DNA of 20,000 nucleotides from Catajapyx aquilonaris (Eukaryota). The first letter of the stretch is position 1, and each line of letters starts with the position of its first letter. Shown piece by piece: positions 1-19,905 of this stretch. A model generated the notes under the pieces. The model worked only from the letters and a program-made list of their open reading frames with translations, was not told where the DNA came from and did not search any database. Position numbers and translations under genes: made by a program. Location: contig JYFJ02001846.1 of NCBI GenBank assembly GCA_000934665.2, forward strand, positions 48,244-68,243. The letters are read 5' to 3'.

Positions 1-839
1 GGGGGGGGGGGGGGTGTCCATATCCCATTGTCACATGTGAATGCGGCAGCAATCAATTTGAACCTCACTTGACATTACTGTCAATCCCACTCCTGATGTC
101 TCTTTACGTTACCAGTGATTGTAATCCTGTCAAACCAATGAAGCTATTGATTCACTTGCACACTTCTGATTCATATGGATTGTTCTCACCATTATGCAGA
201 GAAATTGTGTTGCACTGAGGTTTCAAATGTAGTTAAATTTCCTCTCGCGGTCATGACGGCCTGCTGATGTTTGATAATTCAGTCATTATGGCGCAATAAT
301 ATTTAAAATAATTAACATGCTCTCTCTAACAGTGCATAAGTTTGATCTTGAAGATGCACGACGTATTAAAGCAAGAGACTGTATACTGATCGATGAAACA
401 CTTCAATTGTCTGGTGGTCATGGAGGATCACATTTTTTGCTGTGTGATTAGTGTTGGTGTGTTATTGACTTGGTTCAGACATTTTGTTGTCGTAGAATTT
501 TCACAATTTATTGACATTTTTTCCCTTCAATTATTATCATACGTGGATTCATTATTCTCATTGGTAGATTTTTTTTTTTTTTGTCCTGCCTGAGCCTGAA
601 AGCCACCAATATTTCGGGTGAATAATAATGCCTCCATGGTGTGCAGTTATCCCGATGTTTCTTTTCAGTGCATCACTTCGCTTAAGTATGAATCAGAGTG
701 ATTAGGTCATAACCTCGTGTAATGAATCCACAACTACTGTTTTCCACTAAAGCCACTGGTACAGGATGGATCAAGGGTTGGATAAAACCTAATGAACTAT
801 AGGTAGTGAGTTGATCCAGCTCTTTTTTGTCTGATAAGA

Positions 840-1500
840 ATCATAGCGTTTGTACACTGTCATGGTTGACCTTTATTTGGATGCAACCCAGGATGTATGG
901 CCATTGTGAAATGTTTTCCCCAGCTCAAGACAGGACGAGAGGGTACACTTGGCCATGTAAGTAAAAATATTTCTCTACAAGAAGTCCTGACTCACATTTG
1001 CCTAGTCTTCAGATGTTTAATAGTTCTTAATGCAACACAGATTACCTGCAATTGAATCTTTTGCCCTGTTACTCATAGAAAATTCCACAATGAATTTATT
1101 AATTTATATCCAGTGTTTAAAAAGTGCTTCACTACAGCAAAATTAATTAAATATTGCTGCAGTTGTTATTATGTGACAGCCTGTATGCGATCATTAGTTT
1201 TCAGCAAACATAACTTGCAGCCTATGCTGGCTACAAAATTTGCATTACATTGGAATACTTTGCTAAGAACATAGGCCTACTGTTCTCATTCATGTTATTT
1301 CGCACAGGAACACTTCTATAATAGATAAAGTGGACAAGGTTTCATAGAGTACGGCTGAAAACAGCAAGAGCACCTTTGTCCCCAGCAAAGAAAAAAAACA
1401 AAAAGCACAACACCAAGCGTACCGGTAATGTAAATATTACTCAAGACTCCGAAGATGCAGATGATGCTTTAATGGAGGCATCACTGGAACACACTGACTG
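840..1500 (+). pseudogene. Degenerate spliced relic of a CACTA/EnSpm accessory (ORF2, SAMD3-like) gene
   Basis: One exon reads ..MAIVKCFPQLKTGREGTLGH and ends at GTAAGT (~957). The exon after CACAG (~1308) reads EHFYNR*SGQGFIEY, then after a frameshift RLKTAR. This matches the 'IV..FP.L.D...GYEHFYD..SG.GYL..RLKT' pattern I associate with animal EnSpm second ORFs. It contains stops and frameshifts. Confidence 0.45.
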
Positions 1501-1518
1501 AAATGGTAGGTTATATAG

Positions 1519-1989
1519 CATGGTGCCAATAAGAAAGTTGGGTACTGGTTGTTGCAATCATTAATGGCATATAGACGGGGAGCAAAATCTGAAAAGGTGC
1601 CGAAGGTCCTTGGAAAGCAGTTGGGTGTAACTTTACACAAATGTGGTTTACTGCTCAAGACAGAGCTGCCTATTTTTGGAGCTTCTCCAGACGGAATTAC
1701 CAGCGAATTCATTGTAGAAGTGAAGTGTCCTTCCATTGAGGAAACATACAAGAGATACTTCACCAGCCAGGGGTCACCAACCCCAAATGTTTATGCACAA
1801 ATGCAACTTCAAATGCATATGGCAGGGAAGAAGAAGGGCGTGTTTTGTGTTGCAAATGCAGATTTTAAAACGTCAAAAAACATCACCCAAATCTTGGTGG
1901 ACTACGATGATGATCACGCAATGGTACTTATAACTAGTGCAACTTTGTTCTGGAAAACTTACATTTTTCCAATGATGATACAACCATAA
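1519..1989 (+). pseudogene. YqaJ/lambda-exonuclease-like PD-(D/E)XK nuclease, C-terminal part, of an ISL2EU-type transposon
   Basis: ORF 1549-1989 carries CGL..PIFGASPDG, IVEVKCP, YAQMQLQMH and a terminal FWK..IFP, which are YqaJ motifs. It is 5'-truncated and convergent with a DDE transposase fragment. Confidence 0.85.
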
Positions 1990-2073
1990 AATGTGCCTCC
2001 AACATTTCAAGTCAAGTTATATGTTGCGATATGTTATATGTTGGTGATCTAAGACTATTGCACCACTATTGCA

Positions 2074-2397
2074 CTACTTCACTAGGGGACCTTGCATATT
2101 GATGAGACCTCCTGCTATAGCCTATTCACAGCATGGCACCAAGTGACAGTCAATACAAGAATAGGGGACCAGCATGTTAACTCCCTGAAGCGCCTGACGA
2201 CTCTTTCAATATGGACTCGCAAGCTGGCAACCCGCCTGCACAACCTTGCTTCTGCCTTGCTCATCTTCTCCCCTGGTACTACACTTGGAGGACGAGCACG
2301 TGAACACCCCTTGGCATGTAACAGGCCCCCCACATGCTTGAATCCTCTGTCAGCCATAACAACTGATCCAGGGGTCAGACAATCCAAGTACCCACAA
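2074..2397 (-). pseudogene. ISL2EU (PIF/Harbinger-related, DDE_Tnp_4) transposase, C-terminal fragment
   Basis: Reads GYLDCLTPGSVVMADRGF..RPPSV..VASLRVHIERVVRRFRE. After a frameshift it continues NMLVPYSC..*AIAGGLINMQGPLVK*, with the stop at 2074-2076. Similarity is lost above ~2400. Confidence 0.85.
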
Positions 2398-2674
2398 ATT
2401 TGGTTGGCAGGTCGGTTCGCCCCGGGGCGACCTAACCGCCCTCCAAACCGAGCTCTGGACCGGACACTTACTCAAACGCACACGCAGGCATCAGGAATAG
2501 CTTACAACAACGAACAAATTTACGACCCTGCCGGGGCACATTCTATAACATCATTTTCGGGTTCATTTCACTTCGCGTGACGTCAACATTTTCGAGACAA
2601 ACAGTGACGTCACCATTTCCCTTCGAAAAAACCCTAATTACTCCGGAACTGAAACTGATTTCTTAAAACGGAAT

Positions 2675-2710
2675 CCTATCCTAACCTAACCTAACTAAAC
2701 CTAACCAACC
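2675..2710. repeat. Short degenerate (CCTAA)n array (arthropod telomere-type TTAGG motif)
   Basis: The sequence reads cctat cctaa cctaa cctaa ctaaa cctaa ccaacc. Confidence 0.75.
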
Positions 2711-3094
2711 ACCCGCCTTACAGAGTCATGCCTGCTCCTCACAGCTCTTGCACATTAGCTTGTTGAGGATCCCCCATCCCACCCGCAGAGCAGAGAAGCG
2801 GATCTCCGAGCTCGAGTCGGCGCCTTTTCCAGACCACCAGAGGCCTGTTAAGCAGCACCCCCCCCCGGATGGTTCCTGTTAAGACCTCCACTCCAGCCAC
2901 TTCCGTCCCTGAGAAGAAGCCAAGGAGGAGGGGCTGCCGGGCTGGTAAAAAATACAGGAAGAACCAGGCCGACAAAGATGCCAGCCAAGCCAGACGGGCG
3001 CAAGAACTTTTCCCCAAAGAGGCCCAAAGGGAGGTGTTCAACCGCCAATACAACAAGCGCCTTGCCATCAAGCAAGAAGCGGATGTTCGGCTCC

Positions 3095-3833
3095 AATACC
3101 AACTGTGCCGCGGCGGGGGAGAGCATCCAACAATTGCAAGAAGACTTACGGAATTGGCCCAGCCACGTTTTTGGCAACCACGCCAAATGCAGAGATTCAT
3201 ATTGCAAGAGGAAAGACTTGGGAGAGGAGAATTATGTACAGGAAGTGAAGAAGGCCGGGGTGTACCAAGAGGTCATGGCTCTGGTGAATTCCTTGGTGAG
3301 TAAAGCTGGTCGTCTGCTCCCCAACAACACCAGCAACAGCGCTGAGCACTTCATGAGTTTGGTTGCCAAGTACGTTGGAGAGAAGAGGATAAATTACAGG
3401 CGCAAAGGGGGATACACAAGAAGGTGCATGGGTGCAGGAATGGCCCTCTCAAGTGGACCATCTTGGCATTTGTCTCCTCTCCGGCGTGCGCTACAACGTA
3501 AGTCTCGGGGTCTTCACCAAACGCCTGATGCAGAGACGTGAGAAGAGGAGAGGTTCCACCGCCAAGTCCCGACGGAAGGTGCCATTTCTTCCCAGAGACA
3601 AAACCAAGACAGCAACGAGGCCACAAGAAACTCTGCGTGATTATGGCAAATCTGCTGCAGAGCCGGACTTTACACAAGAAGAAATGGAGATTGGCTGTCG
3701 GGCAAAACTGGTCGAGCTCCAAGTAAGTGAAGAAGATCAAGCAGACATCGAGAAATCAACACGGCTACAAAGTCAGTCCCACGTATGGGGCACTCACCGT
3801 CGTCCTCGCTTGACGGCGTCAAACTTCGGAGAG
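3095..3833 (+). pseudogene. Kolobok-type ('Mutator-like' Pfam) DDE transposase C-terminus running into the start of a YqaJ domain (KolobokE-like)
   Basis: Reads LQEDLRNWPSHVFGNHAKCRDSYC (H/C motif), then NTSNSAEHFMSLVAK..KRINY..GGYTRRC (catalytic E region). After a frameshift: DYGKSAAEPD..IEKSTRLQSQSHVW..RRPRLTASNFGE, the YqaJ N-terminal motif. Confidence 0.75.
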
Positions 3834-5314
3834 GGTCCAAATTGAAACTAATTATTGTCACTATTTTGTGTCGATATGTTCTTGTCAAAAAATATGGACT
3901 GAGTGTGATTCTTAAGCCACTGATAGAAGAGATCAAAGAATTGAAAGACACAGGTGTCAATATTTGTCTGGGAAGTGAAATTAGAACATTCAAGGGCACT
4001 GTGATTAGCATCCTTGCTGACAACCTCGGGCACATACTATTGGTGGTTATGTGGCAAATTTCAGCTCATCTTTAAGAGTGTGCAGATTTTGTATGATTAC
4101 CAATGAAGAAGCAAGGGTATGTGTAGATAATCAGGAATGACAACTTAGAGGCAGAGATTTATATGAGGAACATATGCAGTCGGTAGAGGATGATGAAACA
4201 TTGAGCAGTGTTTACGGATTAAAAAGTAGATCTGCTTTCAGCCAGCTGGCCCACGCTCACATTACTGAACTTCTTCCTCCAGATGTACTCCATGACCTCA
4301 TGGAAGGCGTTATCCCTGCAGTAGTAACTTTGATGTTAAAAGTGGGTCATGACAAAAAAATACTTACTCTACAAGTCGTGAACAACATATTTGAGTGCTT
4401 CCCTTTTAAAGGCACAGATGGACGATCCAGACCAAAACCCATGTTGAGTTATACTGCCTTCAGACAAACACGTAGTCAAGCTTGGTGCGTCATCAGATTC
4501 TTTCCCCTGCTCTTTGGTGAGTTTGTGCCACAACAAGAACCAATGTGGGAAGTGATACTTTCTCTTCATAATCTAGAAACTTACTGCATGGCTCCATGCC
4601 TCACTCCTGCAATGGCCAATAACCTAGCCGTAGTGATTCGGGAATTTCTGGAGAGGTACAAAGATATTTCTGGCTCTCGAATGACTCATAAATTTCACTA
4701 CTTGTTACATTACCCTTCAATTATTAAAAAAATCGGTCCAGTAGTCACATGTAGCACAATACGATATGAGGCAAAACATGGTGAACTTAAGGAATGGGCC
4801 CACAGGACAAAAAATAGGAAAAACATTTCACTGACACTTGCTAAACGTCACCAGAACCATCAGCAGTATTTGTGGGCATCAAAGTTGCTGCAATCAGTTG
4901 GGAGATATGAAAAGGATTTAAAAAAAGACTGTCAGCAATTTGAAACATGTATGTGTACAACAAAAGTTGCAGGAGTCTGGGTGCAGTAGGAATGATGAGA
5001 TAACAATTTGCTCTCATATTGATTTTTGTGGGACAGAGTATCGATGTGGCATGGTTGTCATTGCAAAGGTTACTGATTACGAACCGTAATTTCACTCGAT
5101 TCTTAACATCTACAGCATCAAGGAAGAAGTTGTCTTTTTGCTACATGAAAGGCAGGGCCATTATGACCGCCACTTTGCTGCTCATGTTTTGGAAGAAACG
5201 AATGCTCGCTCAGCAGTACATGTCAGTGAATTGAGGACTTTCTTGCCACTTAATGTGTACACAGTGAATGGAAAACAATGTGTCGTTCTAAAAGTAATGT
5301 ATCCAATCCATTAA
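3832..5314 (+). pseudogene. CACTA/EnSpm (CMC) transposase, C-terminal part
   Basis: Motifs in order: SKL..ILKPLIEEIKEL..ILADNLG; (frameshift) HTIGGYVANFS..VCRFC; PPDVLHDLMEG; KFHYLLHYP..IGP..IRYEAKH; and a tail GTEYRCGM..HYDRHFAAHV..PLNVY..VVLK..IH* ending in TAA at 5312-5314. Several stops and frameshifts are present. Confidence 0.85.
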
Positions 5315-5381
5315 CCCTTAACTAGTATCATGGGGTCTTTTTTGACCGCAAGCTTACGAGAATATTAACAGTGTCAAGTTA

Positions 5382-5963
5382 TATCCTGGAATGGACCTTA
5401 TCGGAGCTACCTTCATCGCTTCCATTTGGGAGGAGATCATGTGGGGGATGCATCAGAAGACAACGGAGATGGTGGGGATCACATAATAGATGATAACCAG
5501 AATGATTCTGATGATGCGCGGTGCCAGTGTGGAGACGGAGTTCAGACTGCAGCTCATATCATCTGGAGCTGCAATATCCCAGAAATAGCAGCTGCCCGGG
5601 GAGAGCTTCGCCGGACATCTGTTTCTAGAGGATTAGGATGGCCCTGTTCGAAGAGGGCTCTGGTGGAAGATTTGCTGCCTGAGTTCAATCGTTTCTCTCT
5701 GGCAGTGGACCGAAAATTGTCACCTCAATGCAGGAAGAGGCTGGAGTAAGCTACGGGAGGTGTCGTCTGATGCCAACCCAAAGAAGTAGAGGAAGAAGAG
5801 TACGCTATACGGGGTAGACCAGATCTAATCCAGAGAAGAAAGACACGCGAATAATTTTGAGTGTGCATAATGTGAATTGGAATATTGCTAATTTGACTAT
5901 TTATTGAATAAAGCATGGTGATGGGTGCAGGGCCTGTCTAGGCTAGTCACCTTAAACCTCTCG
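5382..5963 (+). mobile_element. 5'-truncated non-LTR retrotransposon 3' end (R1-like ORF2 CCHC zinc knuckle + 3'UTR)
   Basis: Reads NGPYRSYLHRFHL..CQCGDGVQTAAHIIWSC, with a stop at 5749 and AATAAA at 5907. It is flanked by a perfect 14-bp direct repeat ACAGTGTCAAGTTA (5368-5381 and 5964-5977). Confidence 0.8.
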
Positions 5964-6029
5964 ACAGTGTCAAGTTACTCATTAATTAAAAGCCAAATGC
6001 CTTTGTGTATACCTCAAACGTATCTTTGC

Positions 6030-6153
6030 CAAGGGGGTAACCACTCGACTGAAAAGTGTACACTGGAGTACCAAATTCAAGGAGTACCCCGGAGTATACC
6101 AAGGAGTACCACTCGCAGGTGTACACCGGAGTACCGAAGTGGTCACCCCCTTG
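6030..6153. mobile_element. 124-bp MITE with 16-bp TIRs and 8-bp TSD (hAT- or P-type)
   Basis: TIRs are CAAGGGGGTAACCACT and AGTGGTCACCCCCTTG (1 mismatch). The TSD ATCTTTGC lies at 6022-6029 and 6154-6161. Internal GGAGTA(CC) motifs occur at 6065, 6081, 6091, 6103 and 6128. Confidence 0.9.
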
Positions 6154-6409
6154 ATCTTTGCCTATGTGGTCTTTGAAAATGGAAAAATTTAAAAAAAAAT
6201 CTGGGCCATCAAAAAACAGCTGTAAGCACGGTGGGTGCATCAGGGGTCAATAAAGACCCCATGATACTAGTTACGTTTGAATTCCTCATTACTCTTGCAT
6301 TCATGTCTTCAAATGAGCATCTTCTAGTCTTTCATTCTTAAGATCATTGCATCTTCCTCTGTTCACTTTTGAATTTGCAACTTCAGATTGCCCATAACAG
6401 ATACCATGC

Positions 6410-6453
6410 CCACACCAAACCACACACCAACACCCACACACACACACACACCC
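6410..6453. repeat. (CA)n microsatellite
   Basis: A pure CA run lies at ~6434-6451 with a degenerate CA-rich flank. Confidence 0.9.
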
Positions 6454-6596
6454 ATGTGAATGACCTATAACGTCCATCTCAACACAGACAGGGTAGGTGA
6501 ACGTCTACTCTAAATTGTATGTGTATTGTTATTTCCTTGAAAAAATTGCCCAATTTAATTGCAAGAACTAATGTAGTTTACAATAATGTTTTCCAG

Positions 6597-7078
6597 CGAC
6601 TGCCATGTAACATGCGGGGCGAAAAAGAAAGTTATTCGCACTGCCACCCGAAACGTCAGGGACATCTCCCTATCAATTAAAAATGCCTTCTCGGTAAGTG
6701 AAATGCATGAATACATCATAATATAATCTGGACAGCCATTACTGGCTCCATTTGTGACATTGATTTGAAATAATTATATTCACATGATAATTATGTGCTC
6801 CTGTTATTGTACTACAGCTCGCATGTCTTCCTCAAGTACAAGTGTTTCATGAAAAGTATGGAGATTGGGTGGATGTAGAGGAAGGAGAGGAGGTTCCTCC
6901 TACAGCCAGGAAACTACTTGTAGTTGAAGACGAGTATGAATGAAGGGAATGTTATCATGATAATAATGCATGATAGTAAATACTTTTGCAATTCGACAAG
7001 GACACTATATGACATTCTCATCCATTTCAGGACATCAGAAAATGCAACAGTAATGGAGCCGGCATTTTCGGACACAAC
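6597..7078 (+). pseudogene. Spliced N-terminal exons of the EnSpm second gene
   Basis: Three phase-compatible GT-AG exons: 6597-6693 (DCHVTCGAKKKVIR..IKNAFS), 6818-6933 (LACLPQVQVFHEKYGDWVDVEEGEEVPPTARKLLVVED) and 7031-7078. The 'Q..D..(F/Y)G(E/D)WVDV..KL.V' pattern and the position just downstream of the transposase fit an EnSpm ORF2. Confidence 0.55.
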
Positions 7079-7099
7079 GTTAGTATATTTTATATAATG

Positions 7100-7282
7100 C
7101 TTTGTTGCAATTTTCAATTGAATTATTAACTAATTATATCTAACACGAAGCTGCTAGATGTATACTTGTACTTCCCAATACCAGGGCATAGTTTCATGCC
7201 AATTGATCGAGCATTCGCCAAGATTGAAAAATGCAGAAGGAAGAAAGACAATGCCACAGTACCATCCACATGGATTCAAACT
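7100..7282 (+). pseudogene. Sola1-like transposase catalytic fragment (not in the ORF track)
   Basis: The frame starting at 7142 reads NTKLLDVYLYFPIPGHSFMPIDRAFAKIEKCRRKKDNATVPSTWIQT, containing the FP..GHS..P.DR.F..IEK motif. Confidence 0.7.
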
Positions 7283-7605
7283 AGGGGTGCAATGGCAGAG
7301 TGGCTGTGTCTTCAATAATATAACATTACTCCAGGCTTTGAAAAGTGGGACACTAAACGTTCCCAGCAATCATCCCAATTACATGATCGGCGACGCTGCA
7401 TTCCCAATGAAGCCGTACCTTATGAAGCCATATGGTGGGGCAAACTGGCAGCTGTACGAGGAGGAGAAGATATTTAATTACAGGTTAATCACGGGCGAGA
7501 AATGTTGTCGAAAATGCGTTCGGCATACTGGCGGCACGCTGCCGAGTTCTGCTGACTTCCATCCGAACAAAGGTGGAGACAACATATCTCATTGTACAAG
7601 CATGC
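7283..7605 (+). pseudogene. Harbinger (HARBI1-like) DDE transposase fragment
   Basis: Reads GCNGRV, (frameshift) VFNN..IGDAAFPMKPYLMKPY..IFNYRL, (frameshift) SRARNVVENAFGILAARCRVL..IVQAC. Confidence 0.9.
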
Positions 7606-7850
7606 TGAAGGAGTTCCTCCAAATACTACAGCCTTCAGAAGGGAAAGTATTCAGTTCAGTGTACTTTCTTCACCAGAAATCTCATTGTCCTCAATGTCCC
7701 TGAAGTCTGCTACAAAGCTCATCCTATTGGTTTTGGAATTTTGCTTTTAAAGTGCTGGGGCACTGAGGAGTTGGCTTGAGAATCGGTCTAGTCAGTCAGT
7801 TTCGGTCGGGCTACAAGTGCGAAGTGTGGGAACGTGTCACGGTTGTAGCA

Positions 7851-8150
7851 ATGGCAGCGTCGAAAGAGGACACTTATAGATTTGTGGAGCTGTACCAGCT
7901 CCACACTTGCTTGTGGGCAGTGACCAGCGAGGATTACCGCAATAGGTTAAAGCGTGACGCCGCGGACCAGGCCATCGGAGAGAGCATACAGATGACAATA
8001 CCAGCGGTCAAGAAAAAAATCCAAAGCCTGAGGACAACATACTCCCAAGAGAGAAAGAAGCCAGCTGTCCATCTGGACCAGGGACGGAGGATGTGTATGA
8101 ACCTACCATCCAGTGGTACAATCTAATGGATTCATTTATCCGAATACAAA
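7851..8150 (+). pseudogene. MADF-domain DNA-binding gene fragment (Harbinger accessory type)
   Basis: From ATG 7851: FVELYQLHTCLWAVTSEDYRNRLKRD..VKKKIQSLRTTYSQERKK. After a frameshift: SGPGTEDVYEPTIQWYNLMDSFIR. Confidence 0.85.
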
Positions 8151-8169
8151 CAAGCCTCCAGGCCATCTA

Positions 8170-8793
8170 AAAAAGAATACAAGGAAAAAGTCCTTGACGT
8201 CAAAGGCGTAAAAATGCTAACCCAGAAGAAACTCTTTCAAGAGTTTGCAGTGAAAATATGTGAGAGGTTTTCTACCAGCTACACTTCGCAGCAGGTTGGC
8301 GTTGCTGAGACCAAGTGTGGAAGTAAACTTGAGTCCTTTTAGCTGACATAGGACTAATCAGATGTTACTGACTGCATCACTCAATCTCCTCTGTTGATAG
8401 CATGTTGCAACAATACATGATGATGACTAAGAGTTCTCCTTCTGTCACAGGTCCTGAATAAGTGGAAAATCATGGTGAGGGCCTACGAAAAGGCTGAAAA
8501 GCACAACTCACAGACTGGGAGGGACAGGGTGGAGTGCGAATTTGAACAGTGAGTAAGCTCATACATGCTAGACCAATACCACATTCCCAAGGATGCTGTA
8601 AATTCACCTGGCCACAATCATTAATAAGTATATTAACATTTAAATGGTCCTGTTGCAATGTTTGCCCAGTGGAAAATTTGGCAATGACGAAGGTGAGTTG
8701 CAGAATAATTGAACTTGTCATGACCTTTTAGGGAACTCCTGGCTAAGGAGCCCACAACAAGCCCTGTCCTCATGGGCCCAGGTCAAGTTGAAG
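8170..8793 (+). pseudogene. Spliced Myb/SANT-like (trihelix) DNA-binding gene fragment (not in the ORF track)
   Basis: Three phase-compatible exons: ~8170-8294 (KEYKEK..KKLFQEFAVKICERFSTSYTSQQ), 8451-8548 (VLNKWKIMVRAYEKAEKHNSQTGRDRVECEFE) and 8732-8793 (ELLAKEPTTSPV). Confidence 0.75.
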
Positions 8794-9338
8794 GTAGGGA
8801 TAAAAGGTTAGCAATGAGACAGTTCCTGCTCCACAACACTCCAACACTCCCAACACTCGTTCCTATAGGTCTTCTTTTGTTTGCTCCAAGTCCCTCCCGG
8901 CACAGGTTATGTACGTGCGTCAAAGGGCACTTGAAGCTAGCGAAAGTGGGCCCAAAGGAAAATGGGGATGAGTAGTTTTTCACTGGCATGGCAGAACACC
9001 GGTCTGATTGCTACATGACCATCTGCACTCGCTGTCTTTCATCAATCTCCACAGGCCACATGCTGCCTTGTGGCTGATGTGCAAATGTCGAGTGCATATA
9101 GGGGGTGTGGCTAATGAAGTAACGCACACTTGCTTACTAGGTATTGCAGCAATTTTGCAATACAGCTTTCAGATATCAGTTCAAATTACGCCTAATGTGC
9201 GCTAATGCTGTAGTGTAAATGTTTTGTGCAATGCAAGGGTTATGTTAGAACACACCATTAATGATAAATTTAATTACGGCCATAAGACATTGGAACTTAA
9301 TTTTTCAAACACCCACACTTGACCTTCGTCTCTTGCAG

Positions 9339-9854
9339 GTTGTGAGTGAGTCTCGTGAGCACCCAGTAAACGTGCTGATTGTAGAGGTATGAGGTTACAT
9401 TTCAATTACTTCCGTCAATGTTGAAACCTGTCTGAAGAACGTCAACCACCCTTAATTATTCTCATTGGATCAGTCACTTTAATAGTCCAGTGGTTTTAGC
9501 ACAGTGCAGATATTAAGTGGGCGAAAAATTAGTCGGCAGCTGGGTGGAAGTTATTTGTTCTGTTGGTGCAAATTTCAGGATTCGGACCATGAACTGGAGG
9601 TGCCTCATGTCCCAGATGTCACACCTCAAACATCCAAGACCCCTGATCCATGGACTGGGAGAAGGCGCCCAGCTAAACCATGTCAAGCCACAAAGCGGCA
9701 AGCAGCTTCCGCTTTTCTGCATCTGACATGGACTGACATGGACGAGCGGCTAATAAAAGAGGAGGAAGAGGTGTCAAGGCAGCGACGGGAGCTACATCAA
9801 ATGAAAATGGCAGTGCAAGCTAGAAAACTGAAATATTTCCGTAATAAAAAGTAG
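9339..9854 (+). pseudogene. Last two exons of a gene with a C-terminal coiled coil, resembling Harbinger Myb/SANT protein tails
   Basis: Phase-0 exons 9339-9386 and 9579-9854 end in ERLIKEEEEVSRQRRELHQMKMAVQARKLKYFRNKK*. AATAAA follows at ~9918. Confidence 0.45.
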
Positions 9855-10309
9855 TTGAAAAATTTAGTTCCCACAGTGTTTACCAAACAGTGCGGTTACT
9901 TGAATCCCTTCCTGCACAATAAATTTGTTTAAAATATGTTTTTAAATGTCTGTGTGAGTGACGCCAGGTTTGTGTAGCTAGATGCATGTGGGAAGGGAAC
10001 GTCCTAAGATGACATTTGATATGCTCCGCCCTGGCCTGGGCTTCCACTGACTCCTATGGTCAGTGCTAGGAAACCCTTCTCCACTCCAACCTGTTCTATA
10101 CCCACATGTGTGGCCTCATCGATACTCTTTGAGTCCTTAATGGACGCTGTACCGGGCGGTGCAGACACTCGGCTGGTCCAGTCAACTTCATAGGGACGAC
10201 GGGCTTAGGTGGCAGCAGAGTCGAAATTGCTCCTACCGACCGAGTCGGCAAACACTACCGGGATTCTTCTGCAGACGAAAAGTGTCAGCTAGCCTATTCA
10301 TCATGGGGG

Positions 10310-10531
10310 ATGGGGGATGCTGTGCAGATCCATTTACGATGCGGATTTAAGCCCATGGATGGTGTATCCCGGTACTTTCGACCTGCTACTCTGAAGAAAG
10401 GCTTGAGCTTGAAGTCTGCAGGCCACATTGAGGATGTGACACAAGTGATTCGGGGCCATGGCGGAGAAGTTACTGGAAAATGTGTTCCCCAAATGAGGGT
10501 TCAGGCGGCACGCTATGACGTGAACTTGGAG
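10310..10531 (+). pseudogene. First exon of a SWIM/YqaJ-type transposon accessory gene
   Basis: LKKGLSLKSAGHIEDV..VTGKCVPQMRVQAARYDVNLE, followed by GTAGGC, resembles the segment that precedes the SWIM finger in ISL2EU exonuclease proteins. Confidence 0.5.
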
Positions 10532-10614
10532 GTAGGCCATAATAAATGAACCTCTCTAACCTTCTAAAATTCTGAAAGCCCATTACTCTATGCATGTTAA
10601 AATGAGATGTAATT

Positions 10615-11306
10615 GAAGGGCTTGGTGCAAGAAGGGGATAAATCCAATTTTGGTTGGAAGGACTTTATTGGCCGCTCGGATAGGGGGAAAAAAAGGCCGA
10701 TCGCTTGGTGCAAGAATGGGAGTCATCCGGCTGGAAACGAGCATGTCATAAAGGCTGTGGATATATACCCCAGCTCCCTTTGGTAGTAAGAAGGGGGCAG
10801 ATCCGGGATGTACCCCTTTCTTGCGCCCGAAAGTTTCAGCATTGCAGTTATTTGCTGCCTGGGCACCGCGGTCCCCTTGCCCCTGGTCGCAAAAGCCAAA
10901 CATGGATGCCAATAAAGGCGTGCAGATGGACGAGTTGCGAGATTTGTCTGATTCGGGGAGTGACTACGTGCCTTCCGGAGATGACAGTGACAGTGAGGAG
11001 TCGTCTGATGAGGAGCCATCTGCAGAGGAGCCATCAGGGTCTGGTGACACTGGTGCCCAGCATGTATATGAAAAACGTCGGACAAGGAACCCAGGGAAGT
11101 GGCAGAGGTCCTTGCGGAAAACGAAACTCGCCAAAGGGGAGGCTCATATTAACTCCGCCAGTGTTGCAGTGGAGGCCAGGAAGCCTGCCACACAGTGCGA
11201 GTATAAGAAACAGTGCTTGTCGGCTTTGACGGATGACCTAAAACAGTTGATACTCGCATCGTTCAACTCCATTGGTGACTTTCACAAGCAGAACATATAT
11301 CTCAAA
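10615..11306 (+). mobile_element. Left end and N-terminal coding region of a Sola1-like transposon
   Basis: A subterminal motif GGTGCAAGAAGGG recurs at ~10624, ~10707 and inverted at ~10806-10828. From ATG 10902 there is an acidic SDSGSDYVPS tract, then KRRTRNPGKWQRSLRK..GEAHIN..C..KKQC..ILASFNSIGDFHKQNIYL. Confidence 0.6.
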
Positions 11307-11409
11307 ACGGCCCGATGTGTAATAAAATTTACTACAGAGAAACTACTGGGTGCTGAAGCTGTTGCGAAGGGCCTGCAAAAGATGGTTCGTAATTTCGCTA
11401 TCAACCCTT

Positions 11410-11935
11410 GGGGCAAGGTTCGGGGTAAGACTTGGGCTTCTAGTCGATGTTGTAAAACAAGGCGGAGGTACAGTAATACTAACGACGGAAATACCGCTAC
11501 GAGGTTTTTCGCCAACAGCTCCAAGTCTGCATCGATTACGGGGATTGACGAGTACATTGTGCAGAAACTGGGAACAATATTGAAGGCTGTCTCAAGTGGG
11601 TATCCCATTGACGCCAGTAAATTCAAGGACTACTGCCTCGAGACAGCAAATTTATTGGTGAAAGCATACCCCTGGTATCCTACGCCAGTATATAGGCTGT
11701 ATATAGGCTCCTTTTACACGGGCCTCAGATTATTGCCATGTCCGGCCTGCCAGTTGGTCTGCTGTCAGAGGAACCTCAGGAGGCCAGAAATAAGGACTAC
11801 AGATACATCAGGGAGCATCACACACGAAAGACGTCAAGGGTTGGCACAAATGAAGACGACCTGAAAATCCTTCTTGTGTCTTCCGACCCTATCATTTCAT
11901 TGACAAGGACAATGCCTCCAAAGAAGAGATGGATG
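11410..11935 (+). pseudogene. Transib (RAG1-core-related) transposase, C-terminal fragment
   Basis: Reads LGLLVDVVKQGGG, (frameshift) NDGNTATRFF..ITGID..SSGYPID..YPWY, (frameshift) LPVGLLSEEPQEARNKD..REHHTRKTSR..LLVSSDPIIS. Confidence 0.9.
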
Positions 11936-12169
11936 CCGCTAGATATCATCTGGCTCAGTTGTTACATAGTTCAATATGGCTGATGGCTGTAATGAACATA
12001 AGTTAGGTCAATGCAGATCAAGCAGTACTTCATGTGGCCCTTCACCCGCCAGTCGTCACGACGCCCATTGCCGAGCGACACCATTCCAGGGCATCATTAT
12101 AATCCACCTTGAGAAACATTTTCAACCAAAACCAATTGTCTATTTCATTGACTCGTGGCAATCTCCTGC

Positions 12170-12373
12170 AGGAAACGTTTTCCCCTTACCCATCTTGGGG
12201 GCTGCTCTGGCTTCGACGCCATCTTGGATCCCTGACGGTCGACTGTAGCAGTGGGTATACGAGATAGAATAGGGCACCTGGATCGGCGCGCAATAAGCCA
12301 CCAAAAAAAAAATCAGCTTAAAGAGAAATTTCTTGTAACTGAAAGGACTAATATATTTGAAACACACCCTGTA
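12170..12373 (-). mobile_element. Possible single Tc1/mariner-type terminus
   Basis: The minus strand reads TA|CAGGGTGTGTTTC from 12373 and later ATG GGT AAG GGG AAA (MGKGK). No partner TIR was found. Confidence 0.3.
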
Positions 12374-12963
12374 TATCAGTCGTGATTTTAAGAAAATTTT
12401 TGGACATTTTGCATTATGAACTGACTATATGGGGTTTCACTTTTTAAAACCTGGCTAAAGGTAGGGAAACATTATCACCAACTGGATGGACTTCGCGGGT
12501 TGCCACTGCTCAAGTTCCACACCCCCAAACGCACCCTCTCAGCCTTCCGCCGAATTTGTGAGCGGGGCAAGAAACGGAAGCACTCTGACGATTCCATTGC
12601 CACCAGTGGAGGCAACATGAAGAAGCCCCGCCATGAGAAGGTAAATGATCCCAATTGGAAATATAGTGCCATTTTTAAAGGAGCTTGTTTTCACTAGATT
12701 CTTCTGATCTCAACGAGTCTTAATAGCCTTCAATACTGACAAGGGACCTTTCCTGGGTGATAATACAATGTAATGAATATAAATGATGGATTCTACTTTC
12801 TTCTATTGAGGTTTGACAGTACCATTGACTCCTGATGTAACAGCCGCATCTTTAACATACACGAGGTAGAGTTGATTATTTCACGATGTCGATGATGCCG
12901 AAACTTCCACTATTTTACGAGAAAGACTACAGGCCTTACCTTGCAGCTACACTCTGAACCATG

Positions 12964-14548
12964 GAAACTATACGCCGCCTTCCTTGACTTATCAAAAGCC
13001 TTTGACACGGTGAACCACGAGAAATTATGGGCAACAATGCAAATGAGCCGTATAAGCACTCAATTTATTGCGATTGTGCGTGACATTTACAATAAGTTCC
13101 GCATCACTCCAGGCTTAGGCGAACCGGACATACATTTACATGTGGGGAATGGAGTACTGCAGGGGGAGGTTCTTTCGCCTGTACTGTTTAATATCTATAT
13201 AGCAGGCCTCGGGAGAGTTCTAACTGAATCTGGAGCTCATGGTGTGAATTTTGGAGCGAATCAGGCAGATGTACACTATTTAACCTATGCTGACGATATA
13301 GTTTTAATGGCAAGCAATCCACTACACTTGAAAAAGGCATTAGAGACCACTGTAACTTTCTTTTCCAACATGCACCTGACACTGAATATCAACAAAACCA
13401 AAGTGATGGTTTTTAGAAGAGCGGGTCGGCTACCACGAGGTCTGGTGTTCAAGGTGGCTGATCAACCACTTGAAATTGTTCCCCATTACAAATATTTAGG
13501 GGTGATTTTCTCCTCGTCGGGTAAATTTGTTAAGATGGCTGAATCTACAAAGTCCAGAGCGATAGCAACAATTAATGCTCTTTGGCCTACCTTATTAGAC
13601 TACGGATACGTGACATTATGTTAGCAAAGAAGCTGTATGTGAGCCACGTTATTCCCATTGCACAATACGCTTTTCCAACCTGGGGTACTCGGTACATGGA
13701 CATTATGGAACAAATTCAGAACTCCTTTATAAAAAAGTTTTTGAGTCTTCCTAAAAGAACGGCGGGCTTTTTTATTCGGTTGGAAACTGGTATCCCACAC
13801 TTGGGAATAACGTTGACAAGGCAGGTGATTAAGTTCAATCAGAAGCTTGTAAATCCACACATTAACAAACTCCTGGTTGCAGCGTATGGATGCGCGAAGG
13901 TACAATCAGTTCAAGGGTCTGTCTCAATTGATTGGTGCAGGGATGTCAATAAGCTGCTACCCCCAGGTATCTATACTCAAATGCTCAACTCCAACCCGAG
14001 TGAGGCGCTCACCTACTTGACAGAGTTCTACGCTAAGCAAGACGAGGAACTTTTGGCCAATTCTATTTCCTATGCCCCATACTATGCAGCCAAATCTTTA
14101 AACCAACCGGAAGTGTATTGGTCTTACAATCTCCCACTAAACCCGCTGCGTACATGGATTCGATTGCGTGGTTTACCTAAGGTTCTTTGGTTTCAAAACT
14201 ATAAGTTTTCATTTGACGGTGGACCATGTGTGTGGTGTAACACGACCTCTGAATCTGACCTTTTTCATTTACTTTTTGACTGTCCTTTTTTTGTACTCCC
14301 CGCTCTCAATACCTGGTAGATCTGCCCCGCATGCCGCCAGACGGCTTGGCTTTTGTTTTTAACAACCCTCCCAAAAAACCGATAATGGATGTGCACTATT
14401 TTTTTGTGATTGTCTTAAAAAATGTATATAATGGCTGAATAATTGGTTGTCAAAAAAAGGGAAGTGTATGTAATGACTTGGTTGCGGTGTCCCCCATAAA
14501 GGGTTAATCTTACCCTAAAGCCGGGGTACAAATAAATAAATAAATAAA
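12964..14548 (+). mobile_element. 5'-truncated LINE (RTE-X-like) with RT domain, CCHC finger and (TAAA)n tail
   Basis: Motifs: FLDLSKAFDTV, GVLQGEVLSPVLF, YADD, KTKVMVF, YKYLG, IRLETG, CVWCN..HLLFDCP. Frameshifts lie at ~13590 and ~14290. The tail is (AAAT)n at ~14530-14549. TSD TACACTCTGAACCATG lies at 12948-12963 and 14549-14564. The clade assignment is less certain than the LINE call. Confidence 0.92.
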
Positions 14549-14934
14549 TACACTCTGAACCATGAATCTTGTCATGTAAGGTAGAGGTACAAGAGTAATG
14601 AACATTGTTAAAATAAAAAATTAGAAATAATTCACTCACTTTCTTCTACACTATCCACCATCTTGTATCCAACATGTTACTTTTTAAATTTCAGATCTCG
14701 GATGTGGATTGTGCTATTTATTATGCTCAACCGAGCTCAATCTCATGACCAGGAACACCCCCATTTAAAATAGGTATCAAATTGATTAATTTAGGTTGGT
14801 GTGTCCGCCATATTGAAAACTGAAATTTTATCCAGATCTTCAGTATTCATCCGACAAAGTAATTTCACGAGGTGTTAAAGCCAGCTTCTTTATTAAGTAA
14901 CCTAAGCACATAAATTCCATTCGAATAAGAAAAT

Positions 14935-15110
14935 TTAGGATAGTCTCTTCACAATGGAAGACTTGAAATTCGACAGCGTGTAACGAACATACACAATCAT
15001 GTTGCCCATTCGTAGTTTCTGTTGTAATAAGTTCTGCTTTCAGGATTTTGTAAGTTTTCCCTAAACCAATTACAGCACGCTCAATGTGGATACGCTTGGA
15101 CGCCAGGTCT
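14935..15110 (-). pseudogene. Second ISL2EU/Harbinger-type transposase C-terminal fragment (not in the ORF track)
   Basis: The minus strand reads DLASKRIHIERAVIGLGKTYKILKAEL, then after a frameshift GNMIVYVRYTLSNFKSSIVKRLS*. Confidence 0.7.
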
Positions 15111-17827
15111 GTTCATGCCTTCAAGTGCAAGTGGGGCAAATTACAGGTATAATCCATCCCAGAGCCTGAACTATACCACAAGGTGACAAATCAGTGAAGA
15201 AGAGATCCTTGGGCTACACAAGAAGGGAGGAAGAGAGTTATTTTCACCGAGTGACGGTTGCTTCCTTGTGTGAGGTGGTAGTTCTGTCACTTCGTCTACA
15301 CTTAACTCATTCACCTCCTGAAGGAGCGATGTTGCGGGTGCAACAAAAAACCCTTTAAATAACTGACATTTCGCGCCAGGAATTCCATGTGCCCTAAGAG
15401 CTTGTTCATATTCAGTCGTAGGAGCTGCTGCCCTATTATTTAGAGCCTACGCTTTTAAAATCTCAGCAGCTCCCTTCCGCCAACAACAAACTTACTTCAA
15501 TACTCTGACAGTTGAGAGAATCCACTGCTACAAGCACCATGGGTGAGAGGACCAGATAATGGCGACCAGGGAGGTACAAGAAACTAATGGTGCAGCACTG
15601 TCTTTTCTGGACTACACCTAGTCATTGCCGCAATTATCAGGCAAAGCAGAAGGACTTTTTATCGCCGTTTACGACATTGACTTCTCAGTATTTTCAAAGA
15701 GATATCCACGTAATAGCACAATGTTACTTCCATAATAATCGATTTATGAATTTCACATTAACGGACAATCCCACGAATGCGAACGAATTTATGTGAAATT
15801 GAATTGTCTTGCTGAACATCGCAATACAAAACAATGTGCAATTCACCAGTTACCATCAACACGAATGACATGTAAATCTATTGTGAATCTTGTAGGTCTT
15901 AATTTCTGGTCTGGGTTGTTATATCAGCGTCCTTTGAACTACGGTACCGCTATCAGCACGAAGAAAAAGGAAGGGCCAGTTGCAATGACGACACCAATTG
16001 GTCTCGCCTACGGACAGTTCTGGAAGACCTGTGGCACCTGAACCATATTCAGATGGTCTGACTGACTAAAAGTTCTCCTCCAAACTTACTACAACTACTT
16101 GGCTACTACATGGCTGCTCTCCTGCAAACCCAACTAAAACGAGAAACCTCGTCCTTGACAAGACTTTGCGACACCACGTGGTGGGCGGAAAAAGTTGCAA
16201 CCTTGTTGGAGGAGGGGGTTCGCCCCTTCTTCTCTTTCCCTTCCCCCACATGACAGTCCTTCCCCGCCTGGCGAGTTGTGTAGGCGGGCCTGTGTGGAAA
16301 TACATATACCATTTTACTTCATCCGTTGTCTGTGTTATCATTTGAACCCGTGAGCTAGTCCGGAGCCAGGGACCCTGTAGGTGGGGTTCCTGACAACTTG
16401 CATCCAACATGTCTAGGAAATACTGGTCTAAGGAAAGCAGTTGGCATCTGGAACAGCCAACTTCCCAACAGACAACAATGCACACCTTACTATTTTGCAC
16501 GACGACATTTTACTTTGACTCATTAAAATTCATGCGAATACTTTTTCATCTATGTTAATACCAGAGGCTGTAATTATTAGGTTTCCAAGTAATTGCTGGT
16601 GTCATGTGAATTATAGTAACAACCCTTGGCATGACTGGGCCAATGACCATCTATATGCAGAGATGCAAAATATGTAAAGTTGTACACAATTTTTTGCTGC
16701 TACTACTGCATATCTATGTTCACAACGGTTTCCTTTGTTAGATGTTCTTAGACCTTATCCTTGCACTATACAAACACGTAGACTTATGGAATAGAACTCT
16801 AGCAAGCAGAAATGGAATTACGTGTTACAAGTAATGCCATTTGTTGGTGTGTGTGGGGGTCGAGTTGCCACCTCACTGTTGTAGTAGTCAGCCGATAGAC
16901 GGCTGGGGCTGTCAGGTAGAGTGAGTAATAAAAAGGGAATCCACTCTGGAGACTTTCTGACAAATATTCAGACCTGTGGAAATTCTGACATTGTCTTTCT
17001 AGCCACATGACCTTTTGATAGTATTGATCACGCAATTTGTCAACATAGGGAGCAAGGGTATCTATGGGTATGCCCTTACTGGCGTAAATACGAGCTGCCC
17101 TTCTTTCCTCTCAAGCCCCATAAAAAGGAACAAATCTGCACAACATGTTGGAACGTGTCACAAGATGGCCCACTGACAGCGGACCCTGTACAAGCTGGCA
17201 AAAAATAGTTTTGACACCTTATGGAACGAGTTCTTGGTAAAAGTGGAAGGTTTGTCGCCTACGTGCGACGGGCTTTGAGCCACTTTTGTACCTCCCGCTT
17301 CTGGCTCCCCTGGGTGGCCGCAGTTGTGGCCCATTCAGGCCATTCAGGCCGCAGTTGTGGCCGCAGGCGCGGAAGCTCCCCGGCTGTGGCGCCGGCCCCT
17401 GTATCTTGTGTGTATTCACCAGTGTGTTGTATGTATTCAGTAGAGCAGTGCTGATTAAAGTGGTTTGAAAGAAACCTAGCGTGTCGTGCTTGAAAGTATG
17501 ACCCCTCGAACCCCGTCGCCTTGAAGGGTGAAGGCGACAGGTTGGTGGAAATGTCCACGCAACATTGTAGGGTATGATTAGTGACAGGAAAGCGAGTACA
17601 GCCACATAACGATAACCGGATGAGTCATAGGGGGTGTCCAGTCCAAGGTCTGGAGTCAGCCTTGTGTTAACAATCCTTATGCCTTGCAATAAGCAATTGC
17701 TGGAATAACTTGCATTTTCTAATGAATATTTTTACATTGCCCGATATCTTCATGTGCAGACAAGATGCAGCATCATTCTTCACCAGCTTTCTTTAAAAAT
17801 TGAAACTGCTCAGGTTTCGTATACTCG

Positions 17828-18000
17828 GTGAACATTCACTGCACCAACAGAAAAGGAGCAGTGCAAGGAATGCAAATTTCCCCCAACAAAAAATTGCTTC
17901 CTGAAAAATTCACAGATGATGCTGGGCAGACTGAAGGGGCAGTGGATCTGGGTGGACCAAAGAAAGTGTACCAGAGCCTGATTCTGAAACACACACACTC
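17828..18000 (+). pseudogene. G2E3-like HECT ubiquitin-ligase domain fragment
   Basis: NIH..GAVQG..SPNKKL..KFTDDAGQTEGAVDLGGPKK matches the HECT N-lobe motif F..E.AVD.GGP.(R/K). Confidence 0.65.
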
Positions 18001-19519
18001 AACCCGACATAATGGAGGGAGAAGAGGGTAACAACAAGATTTGACATGGATTAATAGGGCGAATTTCCCTGCTAGTATCGTGATTGCCATTTCCCTTTTC
18101 CAATATCCCTCGACCTCAATTCCAGACACCTAGAGCACTTTTTTTTTCTTTTAAACAATCATTTGCCCAACATAGACAAGTTTGCAGTAGAAATTTGCTG
18201 TGCAATACTTGGCATTCATGTCAGTAACATGCTCCTGCAGCAGAATTGTAATGCCTAGCATAGATTTTCATATATCTAAAAAATGAAGCAGACTTGTACT
18301 ATTTTCAGTCCACAATTACCCCTCCTCACCCTAATCCCATATTTCCCACACACATGTATGGGCAGAAGGGAACCATTCTGCCTACTGGACTTGGGACTGC
18401 GGGAATGTCTGAGGCGTCTAGTTTGAATGAGGAGAAGGCATGAATGAGGCCCCTGGGTCTTCTTCCCAACTGCCACCCTCATGTTGTCCCCGCCAGCATC
18501 CCGCAAGGGATCTCTTGATGGTTGGGGGATTGAAGCCCTTCCCTTCCCCGTTGTCCCCGAGGCCTCTTTCTCCATGTTGCTCCTCCTAGTTCTTCCATTG
18601 TCCTCCAAAAGGTGGGCAGATAATTGAAAACCAAATCCATGGTTTTATAAAACATAACCAGCTCCCAGGATGTCTTCTTTGTTGTTGAGTTAACTTAGCA
18701 AGCACTGAGGCTAACAGAGTAGTAGACTGGAATATCATTGTAACGTCGTACACAAAAGTTGTTGAATGTGGGCAGTATTTTGGCACAAAACTGCTCCAGT
18801 GGCACTGAAGCAAGGCTGGTTGGCTGCACCAATGGGTAGGTGCATTCATGTGAAACTCCAGAAGGTGGCTTGACCGAAGGGTGAAGATCGTTGCCACTCG
18901 AAGTTTACACATGACGATGTCCATTCCAGAACCACCCTGCAGTCTCCGCTTTTGTTACATTTAGTTCGTCATAAGATTCCAGTGTGTTCAGCCAAACCCA
19001 GGTTATCAGTTGCTCTGCTTACTGTCATACTGGTAGCATCCATTGGGGCTTTGGCAGCACATATCTGCACAACCTGTCAAAGACAAAAAGGACAAAATTA
19101 GCATTCATTTGTCAGTGTCAGGTAATTACCCGATAAACACACTTTTTTACAAATATTCTAAATACAATGCAAGTGGATACTCTCCCTCATCATGTACGCT
19201 GGTAATAATGATTGGGTAAGATAGCAAAAGTCTATGTGCAACATTATATTGCCTGTCCATACTACGGGAAAAGAGCAGCATAAAATTGGTTGGCTTAATT
19301 TCCTCACACTTGATGGCTATTGCCCTTGAGCCTTCAAATTAACGAGGGCTACAACCTCAGATTAGTACATAGACTCATCATCATGGTCCATCTCACAAGT
19401 CAAGTGCTGTTTCATGAGCGCTGTAATAGTGCCTTGTAATGGGTGATCAGAAATTATTGTTGGATGGCTCCAGCTATTTGTTGGCACTGAAGCTGGTTAT
19501 TTTCAAGCAATTACATTTG

Positions 19520-19696
19520 CAGGGGTCAAAATATTTGGATGCAAAGGTGCAATTTGCACTCCAGTTGACCTGCTTTTTAACGTGGCTGAACCCAGTAATT
19601 AAAAATTAAGCACTCAATGTAAATAATTTGCACTCCAAATGAAAGTCTGGAATGCAAACTTTGCAACTGGACAAAAATTGTTATATTTGACCCCTG
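19520..19696. mobile_element. Small hAT-like MITE
   Basis: Inverted ends are CAGGGGTCAAAATAT and ATATTTGACCCCTG, with AATTTGCACTCCA repeated twice inside. The TSD is not clean. Confidence 0.55.
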
Positions 19697-19905
19697 CTTT
19701 TGCATAACTTTTTTACAATGATTATCAAAAGTATTAGCTACTGGACCCTTGCATTGCATGTGGCCATTCCGCCTTAATAGCAAATAAATTTCCTGTTTCA
19801 AGACTCATTGCGTCTCAGGTGAGGATGGGGTGAACATATGTTTAGTAGGTTGGCCTCGCCTAGAATGTTATTTTTTAAATGTCCCATTTCATCAAATAAT
19901 ATCCC

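Follow-up and report, generated by a model that had tools for sequence, protein, structure and literature searches.

A strand-polarised field of transposon relics in Catajapyx aquilonaris, a candidate one-strand piRNA source locus

Introduction

Why should the gene remnants of DNA transposons, long interspersed nuclear elements (LINEs) and a Gypsy-type element lie almost all on one strand of a single locus? The question is raised by a stretch of 20,000 nucleotides from Catajapyx aquilonaris (hereafter the window), which forms the final 20 kb of a contig of 68,243 bp (JYFJ02001846.1, here C839) whose remaining 48 kb upstream were also analysed. An initial annotation of the window had counted about 14 recognisable coding relics of transposable elements (TEs) on the plus strand between 840 and 14550, and had proposed that this span is a uni-strand cluster for PIWI-interacting RNAs (piRNAs) or a TE trap. 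The count is borne out, as the span holds 17 gene pieces, 16 on the plus strand (two of them weakly or by-eye supported) and one on the minus strand. The strand bias is real, exceeds chance and spans the whole 68-kb contig. We give about an even chance to the reading that the region belongs to a piRNA source locus transcribed from one strand, in which selection has acted on the sense of the genes.

Materials and Methods

The assembly comprises 286 Mb in 20,583 contigs. Open segments were scanned against Pfam, 125 on the plus strand and 131 on the minus strand of the window, all of at least 40 aa, and 270 in the upstream contig, giving 526 for the whole contig. A TE library of 209 long open frames, 169 of them labelled, was drawn from loci of the same genome (L numbers); it has no dedicated Helitron, BEL/Pao, MULE, Tc1, Merlin or Maverick members. 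Three matches were dropped before counting: a plus-strand match at 6025-6114 (a piece of a miniature inverted-repeat transposable element, MITE, within a library open reading frame, ORF), a weak plus-strand match at contig 1951 and a minus-strand match at contig 2330 (an unlabelled ORF in a DNA repeat). Upstream plus-strand candidates recognised by eye only (a Gypsy protease, one P-like and two hAT-like) were left out of the counts. Genome background was sampled in ten 20-kb windows, each at a position fixed in advance, from contigs of 34-204 kb.

Strand bias across the contig

Plus-strand Pfam matches in the window were to YqaJ (1519), DDE_Tnp_4 (7158), MADF (7767) and RVT_1 (12896), with weak ones to Plavaka, DUF7869 and Mutator. 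The sole minus-strand TE match was to DDE_Tnp_4 at 2118-2471, in agreement with the initial annotation, in which the convergent partner of the YqaJ gene was the only clear minus-strand gene of the span. Its weaker minus-strand hints at 12.2-12.9 kb did not hold up, as they gave no coding match and consist of short dispersed repeats. Upstream, all six Pfam TE-family matches among the 270 segments were on the plus strand. A search of all 68 kb with the own-genome library placed 35 of 38 merged tblastn matches and 40 of 44 phmmer segments on that strand as well. The only minus-strand gene pieces within or adjoining the span are the transposase tails of two convergent ISL2EU cores. The longest unexplained upstream minus-strand ORF tested (L004:9249-9827, 193 aa) had no homolog in database searches and is likely not a gene.

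Counts of pieces overstate independence, and the polarity could have arisen by chance where TEs are dense, looking stronger than it is because pieces are not independent and the window was chosen post hoc. The counts are indeed small and several pieces come from one element, as the initial annotation had cautioned. Nonetheless, a strict count after merging left 12 plus-strand pieces and one minus-strand piece in the span (p = 0.003). Taking elements whose genes all lie on one strand (one-way elements) as the unit, 16 of 17 over the contig were on the plus strand (p = 2.7e-4): 12 DNA transposons, four LINEs and one Gypsy-type reverse transcriptase (RT) relic, the sole minus-strand case being a weak LINE tail at the far end of the contig. 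The orientation test on flanking sequence that the initial annotation had proposed thus gave a result far from 50:50, and the upstream part, which had no role in choosing the window, replicated the bias by itself (8 of 9, one-sided p = 0.02). Neighbouring TE pairs are also biased genome-wide (p = 0.008), and we regard chance as quite unlikely.

TE-related or repeated sequence covers ∼87% of 840-14550, and DNA searches of the genome showed the window to be a patchwork whose pieces match other contigs at 67-96% identity. No host Pfam family scored above the cut-off in the 526 open segments. The contig therefore shares with piRNA clusters the trait of being TE-dense and host-gene-poor.

Two-gene elements and the direction of insertion

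Elements with two convergent genes separate the direction of an insertion from the sense of the gene that survives. ISL2EU elements consist of a THAP-HTH-DDE transposase and a second ORF with a YqaJ domain (PMC4482050), and both features were found here, the parent copy in L006 carrying THAP, HTH_Tnp_4 and DDE domains and the window copy carrying YqaJ. The Harbinger parent in L010 is a 4.8-kb element bounded by terminal inverted repeats (TIRs), with a DDE gene and a spliced second gene whose Myb/SANT domain was recognised by eye only. Gene pairs are convergent in the intact relatives, namely this Harbinger element and five ISL2EU pairs, and a MADF gene is likewise convergent with a DDE gene in L016. 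In the window, no TIRs were found that would join the DDE fragment at 7285..7607 and the MADF fragment at 7827..8118 into one element.

Only 2 of 7 two-way elements had the transposase on the plus strand, compared with 16 of 17 one-way elements (Fisher p = 0.003), a small sample in which the transposase strand of three of the seven was assigned from relatives, with the MADF piece lacking TIR proof. The surviving gene sequence of the same elements nevertheless amounts to 3236 bp on the plus strand (a figure that includes introns) against 507 bp on the minus strand, and in three cases the partner gene alone survives on the plus strand, the transposase being gone. Because the transposases point both ways while the surviving genes are mostly on the plus strand, the bias tracks the sense in which surviving genes read and suggests selection rather than insertion preference.

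This bears directly on the idea that TEs inserted in a preferred direction, set by the replication fork or by chromatin, with no later selection. Co-orientation of TEs is widespread in this genome, as that idea would predict, but directional insertion should leave two-way elements pointing like the rest, and their transposases do not while their surviving genes do. We know of no direction preference shared across TIR transposons, LINEs and Gypsy elements, and consider this explanation very unlikely.

Origin of the pieces and a proposed mechanism

The pieces are the product of ordinary insertion, nesting and deletion. Two LINEs retain intact target duplications: one of 14 bp around the copy at 5379..5968, which is nested within a TIR element, and one of 16 bp around the copy at 12962..14548, which inserted into the third ISL2EU element. 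The latter LINE likely splits an ISL2EU core into a YqaJ tail at 12874 (plus strand) and a transposase tail at 14936-15112 (minus strand). At 2401/2402, ISL2EU no. 1 lacks ∼2.4 kb that its parent element contains. The relic at 8170-9151 retains its parent's apparent introns and lacks the convergent transposase; these apparent introns, together with the target duplications of the two LINEs, disfavour the capture of spliced mRNA pieces. Tandem duplication was rejected as a source of polarity, as the window contains no long direct repeats or arrays.

What can be read off the locus, then, is that elements inserted in place (target duplications, nesting), that their ends and most of their length were lost, and that the surviving genes are nearly all on the plus strand. 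In the reading that we favour, transcription of the minus strand over ∼63 kb of polarised relics would yield a long precursor RNA, from which PIWI-bound small RNAs would derive. Insertion would presumably be random in direction; insertions, or parts of them, that place a TE gene in sense with the minus-strand transcript would be lost, either because sense pieces truncate the transcript or because they yield no useful guides, and selection would keep the antisense pieces. The piRNAs made from the transcript would then silence relatives that are still active at other sites in the genome. For several relics, identity to copies at other loci is 88-95%, close enough for such guides to pair.

Small RNAs could instead be made by another route, as small interfering RNAs (siRNAs) or from both strands today, the polarity being a legacy of a time when only one strand was used. 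It has been proposed that clusters can switch between one-strand and dual-strand forms (PMC10643416), and AGO-clade genes exist in this genome. Against this, the two young LINEs, which are 94-95% identical to other copies and have intact target duplications, are also on the plus strand, so the bias looks recent; we judge this route unlikely.

PIWI genes

A source locus of the favoured kind would depend on PIWI proteins. The Piwi domain was matched 60 times on 32 contigs. For two of the ORFs the best solved relative was Siwi (E 2e-57 and 6e-58, versus 5e-22 and 7e-19 for AGO2), and 9 of the 10 Piwi loci examined group with these Siwi-like ORFs. The host thus has predicted PIWI-clade Argonautes, with AGO-clade genes also present (L045). 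As a separate observation, the Argonaute/Piwi genes are expanded, with at least two PIWI-clade subfamilies, one of which has an intronless Piwi domain.

Genome background and evidence to the contrary

Among the ten background windows, which exclude the small contigs that carry 59% of TE matches, only one had labelled TE matches (two short ones) and none was relic-dense; seven contained host genes, and the 131 open frames (115 aa or longer) of the ten windows included no TE family. Genome-wide, 414 TE-family rows fell on 384 contigs, 25 of which had two or more matches. The window is one part of a genome compartment, not a singular locus. The contigs of L009, L011, L013, L022 and L025, which carry the nearest relatives of window relics, are themselves co-oriented relic fields.

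Several observations weigh against a piRNA source locus, beginning with the small and partly relative-based sample of two-way elements described above. Two transposase tails and a LINE tail have persisted on the minus strand. Neighbouring TE pairs are co-oriented genome-wide (22 of 30, the biased pairs cited above), sharing a strand in 9 of 10 pairs that lack DDE_Tnp_4 and in 13 of 20 that include it (Fisher p = 0.21), and in 167 own-genome loci 26 of 37 pairs agree once five ISL2EU pairs are set aside, some of the pairs being non-independent. With 72% concordance, 5% of trials give a run of 13 of 14, compared with 0.2% when concordance is 50%; a 50:50 null thus makes the locus look more exceptional than it is. 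Two indirect footprints of minus-strand transcription were not seen: AATAAA shows no minus-strand depletion on the contig (56 on the plus and 49 on the minus strand, against a ratio of 1.44 from base composition), and 55 private substitutions over 2,135 columns, a comparison of low power, revealed no strand asymmetry of mutation. Finally, the one-strand clusters of Rhodnius are not polarised (PMC11614815), so polarity is only loosely tied to piRNA output.

An ordinary transcript could yield the same layout. The region might be a long minus-strand intron or non-coding transcript with no small-RNA role, from which sense insertions were purged for their disruptive splice or polyA signals; the same gene-level bias is predicted, and in mammals TE insertions within transcribed regions are well known to favour the antisense direction (PMC1391917, PMC3088655). 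Yet the 68 kb yielded no host exon (short or novel ones may have escaped), the undepleted minus-strand AATAAA speaks against such purging too, and the extreme TE density relative to background is left unexplained. We see it as the leading alternative, though a somewhat unlikely one.

The proposal of a uni-strand trap or piRNA cluster thus stands in part: the bias exceeds chance, is replicated upstream, acts at the level of gene sense and occurs in a genome with PIWI genes, but the locus is not singular and neither transcription footprint was seen. A bolder extension, which we put forward tentatively and think doubtful, is that a whole compartment of one-strand archives exists, in which every TE class (chiefly DNA transposons) would be pruned gene by gene to antisense to feed the expanded PIWI family, making it a broad polarised trap rather than a Gypsy-specific flamenco.

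Comparison with known systems

Like flamenco and flam-like loci, the contig is gene-poor, TE-dense and polarised (16 of 17 one-way elements read on the plus strand). The enrichment and bias of those loci are reported to be driven by Gypsy long terminal repeat (LTR) elements only (PMC10643416), whereas here one of 17 one-way elements is Gypsy-type, DNA transposons predominate and piRNA output is a prediction. The contig therefore falls outside that family, even if it may function in a similar way. Somatic one-strand clusters of mosquitoes, a stingless bee and crickets resemble it in holding antisense insertions of several classes (gypsy, LINE and Copia, with LINE and Copia besides gypsy in the bee, and viral ones in mosquitoes); they differ in having small-RNA support, and the accessible portion of that source names no polarised cluster dominated by DNA transposons (PMC13172572). 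Many Anopheles clusters are one-directional (PMC4662822).

Viral remnants in antisense occur in the mosquito somatic clusters (PMC13172572). On C4728, a minus-strand fragment of a Mononegavirales mRNA-capping domain (L114:1-711, Pfam E 4e-11) lies on the same strand as the adjoining DUF7869 relic.

The piRNA clusters of Lymnaea stagnalis are enriched for DNA transposons, e.g., Kolobok and hAT, with no polarity reported in the accessible portion of the source (PMC6128900), so DNA-transposon-rich clusters are not new in themselves. In the literature searched, which did not take in most subscription papers or supplements, no polarised cluster made up mainly of DNA transposons came up. Selection for an antisense DNA transposon in a transcribed unit has a precedent in the long non-coding RNA (lncRNA) CR43651, where antisense P-element insertions are adaptive; that case concerns one family and a recent, experimentally tested event, not a multi-family relic field (PMC13171184).

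Composition of the window

EnSpm, Kolobok and Transib are names that we take to fit the relics so labelled here. The 3′ part of an EnSpm-like element of family A (896..1572, plus strand) is 93% identical in DNA to L007 and 95% in amino acids to its 842-aa ORF. The initial annotation had listed EnSpm in the span, and a plus-strand match does start at 896, but the recognisable coding part lies upstream of the window, where the ORF end was found at contig 46226-46609 (plus strand), the element being split by insertions. One insertion in this element (window 10-821; contig 47964-49064) has an 82-93% identical counterpart on C7532, immediately upstream of an LRR-type open frame.

ISL2EU no. 1 follows, with the 3′ part of the YqaJ nuclease gene at 1593..1989 (plus strand; Pfam YqaJ 6e-7; 94% DNA identity to L006) and the last ∼110 aa of the convergent DDE transposase at 2118..2447 (minus strand; Pfam DDE_Tnp_4 3e-7). 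A weakly supported plus-strand repeat at 2714..3092 carries an ORF of no named family (74% DNA and 63% aa identity to a 177-aa open frame in L013). The Kolobok-like transposase fragment at 3107..3840 (plus strand, PF20700 + YqaJ type) has own-genome matches and matches P0001, which carries PF20700 and PF09588, at E 1.5e-24. An EnSpm-like transposase relic of family B occupies 3815..5310 (plus strand; 73% DNA and 71% aa identity to L009; weak Plavaka match), and its downstream exons, counted with it, lie at 6577..6965 (plus strand; 70% DNA and 57% aa identity to L009). Between them, a non-coding TIR element with 38-nt arms (5310..6282; inverted repeat I1), with a copy in C3301, hosts the nested LINE, a plus-strand non-LTR retrotransposon 3′ end that is 95% identical in DNA to L014, which has an ORF with RNase H.

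All coding pieces from here to 14548 are on the plus strand. The DUF7869 transposase-like fragment at 7130..7279 has a weak Pfam match and E 2e-10 to L112, while the N-terminal part of a DUF7869-type gene lies at 10900..11303, of which 11073-11303 matches an ORF upstream of DUF7869 in L113 (E 1e-10), the start being placed by eye; the initial annotation presumably meant these two pieces by Sola, and R1 and RTE-X are likewise its labels. The Harbinger DDE fragment (Pfam 2e-4) is 74% identical in DNA to L016, and the MADF fragment, of the Harbinger partner type (Pfam 3e-14), is 69% identical to the MADF gene there. The middle of a Harbinger second gene (8170..9151) is 88% identical in DNA to the TIR-bounded element in L010. 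Translation by eye, with no database match, suggests the probable last exons of another Harbinger second gene at 9338..9854. A 17-nt inverted repeat at 9292-9308 and 9855-9871 flanks this Myb-like tail fragment and may be chance or a small TIR element carrying the Myb-like piece.

No homolog was found in a search with 10133-10546, and the region was later placed through an own-genome relative: the lone nuclease-gene exon of ISL2EU no. 2 at 10320..10535 is 41% identical in amino acids (E 4e-12) to an exon upstream of YqaJ in L026. The genome DNA search identified a multi-copy, MITE-like 200-bp repeat at 10608..10806. The C-terminal fragment of a Transib-type transposase (11407..11947) is 89% identical in DNA to L011, and the parent ORF matches PDB 6PQN at E 9e-62 and RAG1L weakly. 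The YqaJ gene tail of ISL2EU no. 3 (12874..12954) shows 70% identity over 27 aa to L028, which is also matched, in convergent arrangement, by its apparent convergent partner, the minus-strand transposase tail just outside the span (14936..15112). The non-LTR retrotransposon between them (12962..14548) is 5′-truncated, with a TAAA tail, a Pfam RVT_1 match of 4e-25 and 94% DNA identity to L012.

Beyond the span, a 4.8-kb composite block (15100-19900) is shared with contigs C3091 and C3399 (73-94% identity); any minus-strand transcript would begin at this end of the window. It includes a high-copy 850-bp repeat (18406-19262) and, by eye, a short plus-strand HECT-like motif at ∼17940-18000.

Conclusions

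Should no small RNAs map to the locus, a clear gene-level polarity of TEs would still stand and need another cause. If small RNAs confirm the source locus, polarised trap loci would not be limited to defence against Gypsy elements, and convergent two-gene transposons would provide a built-in test of insertion preference against later selection, one that needs sequence only and could be applied to any genome.

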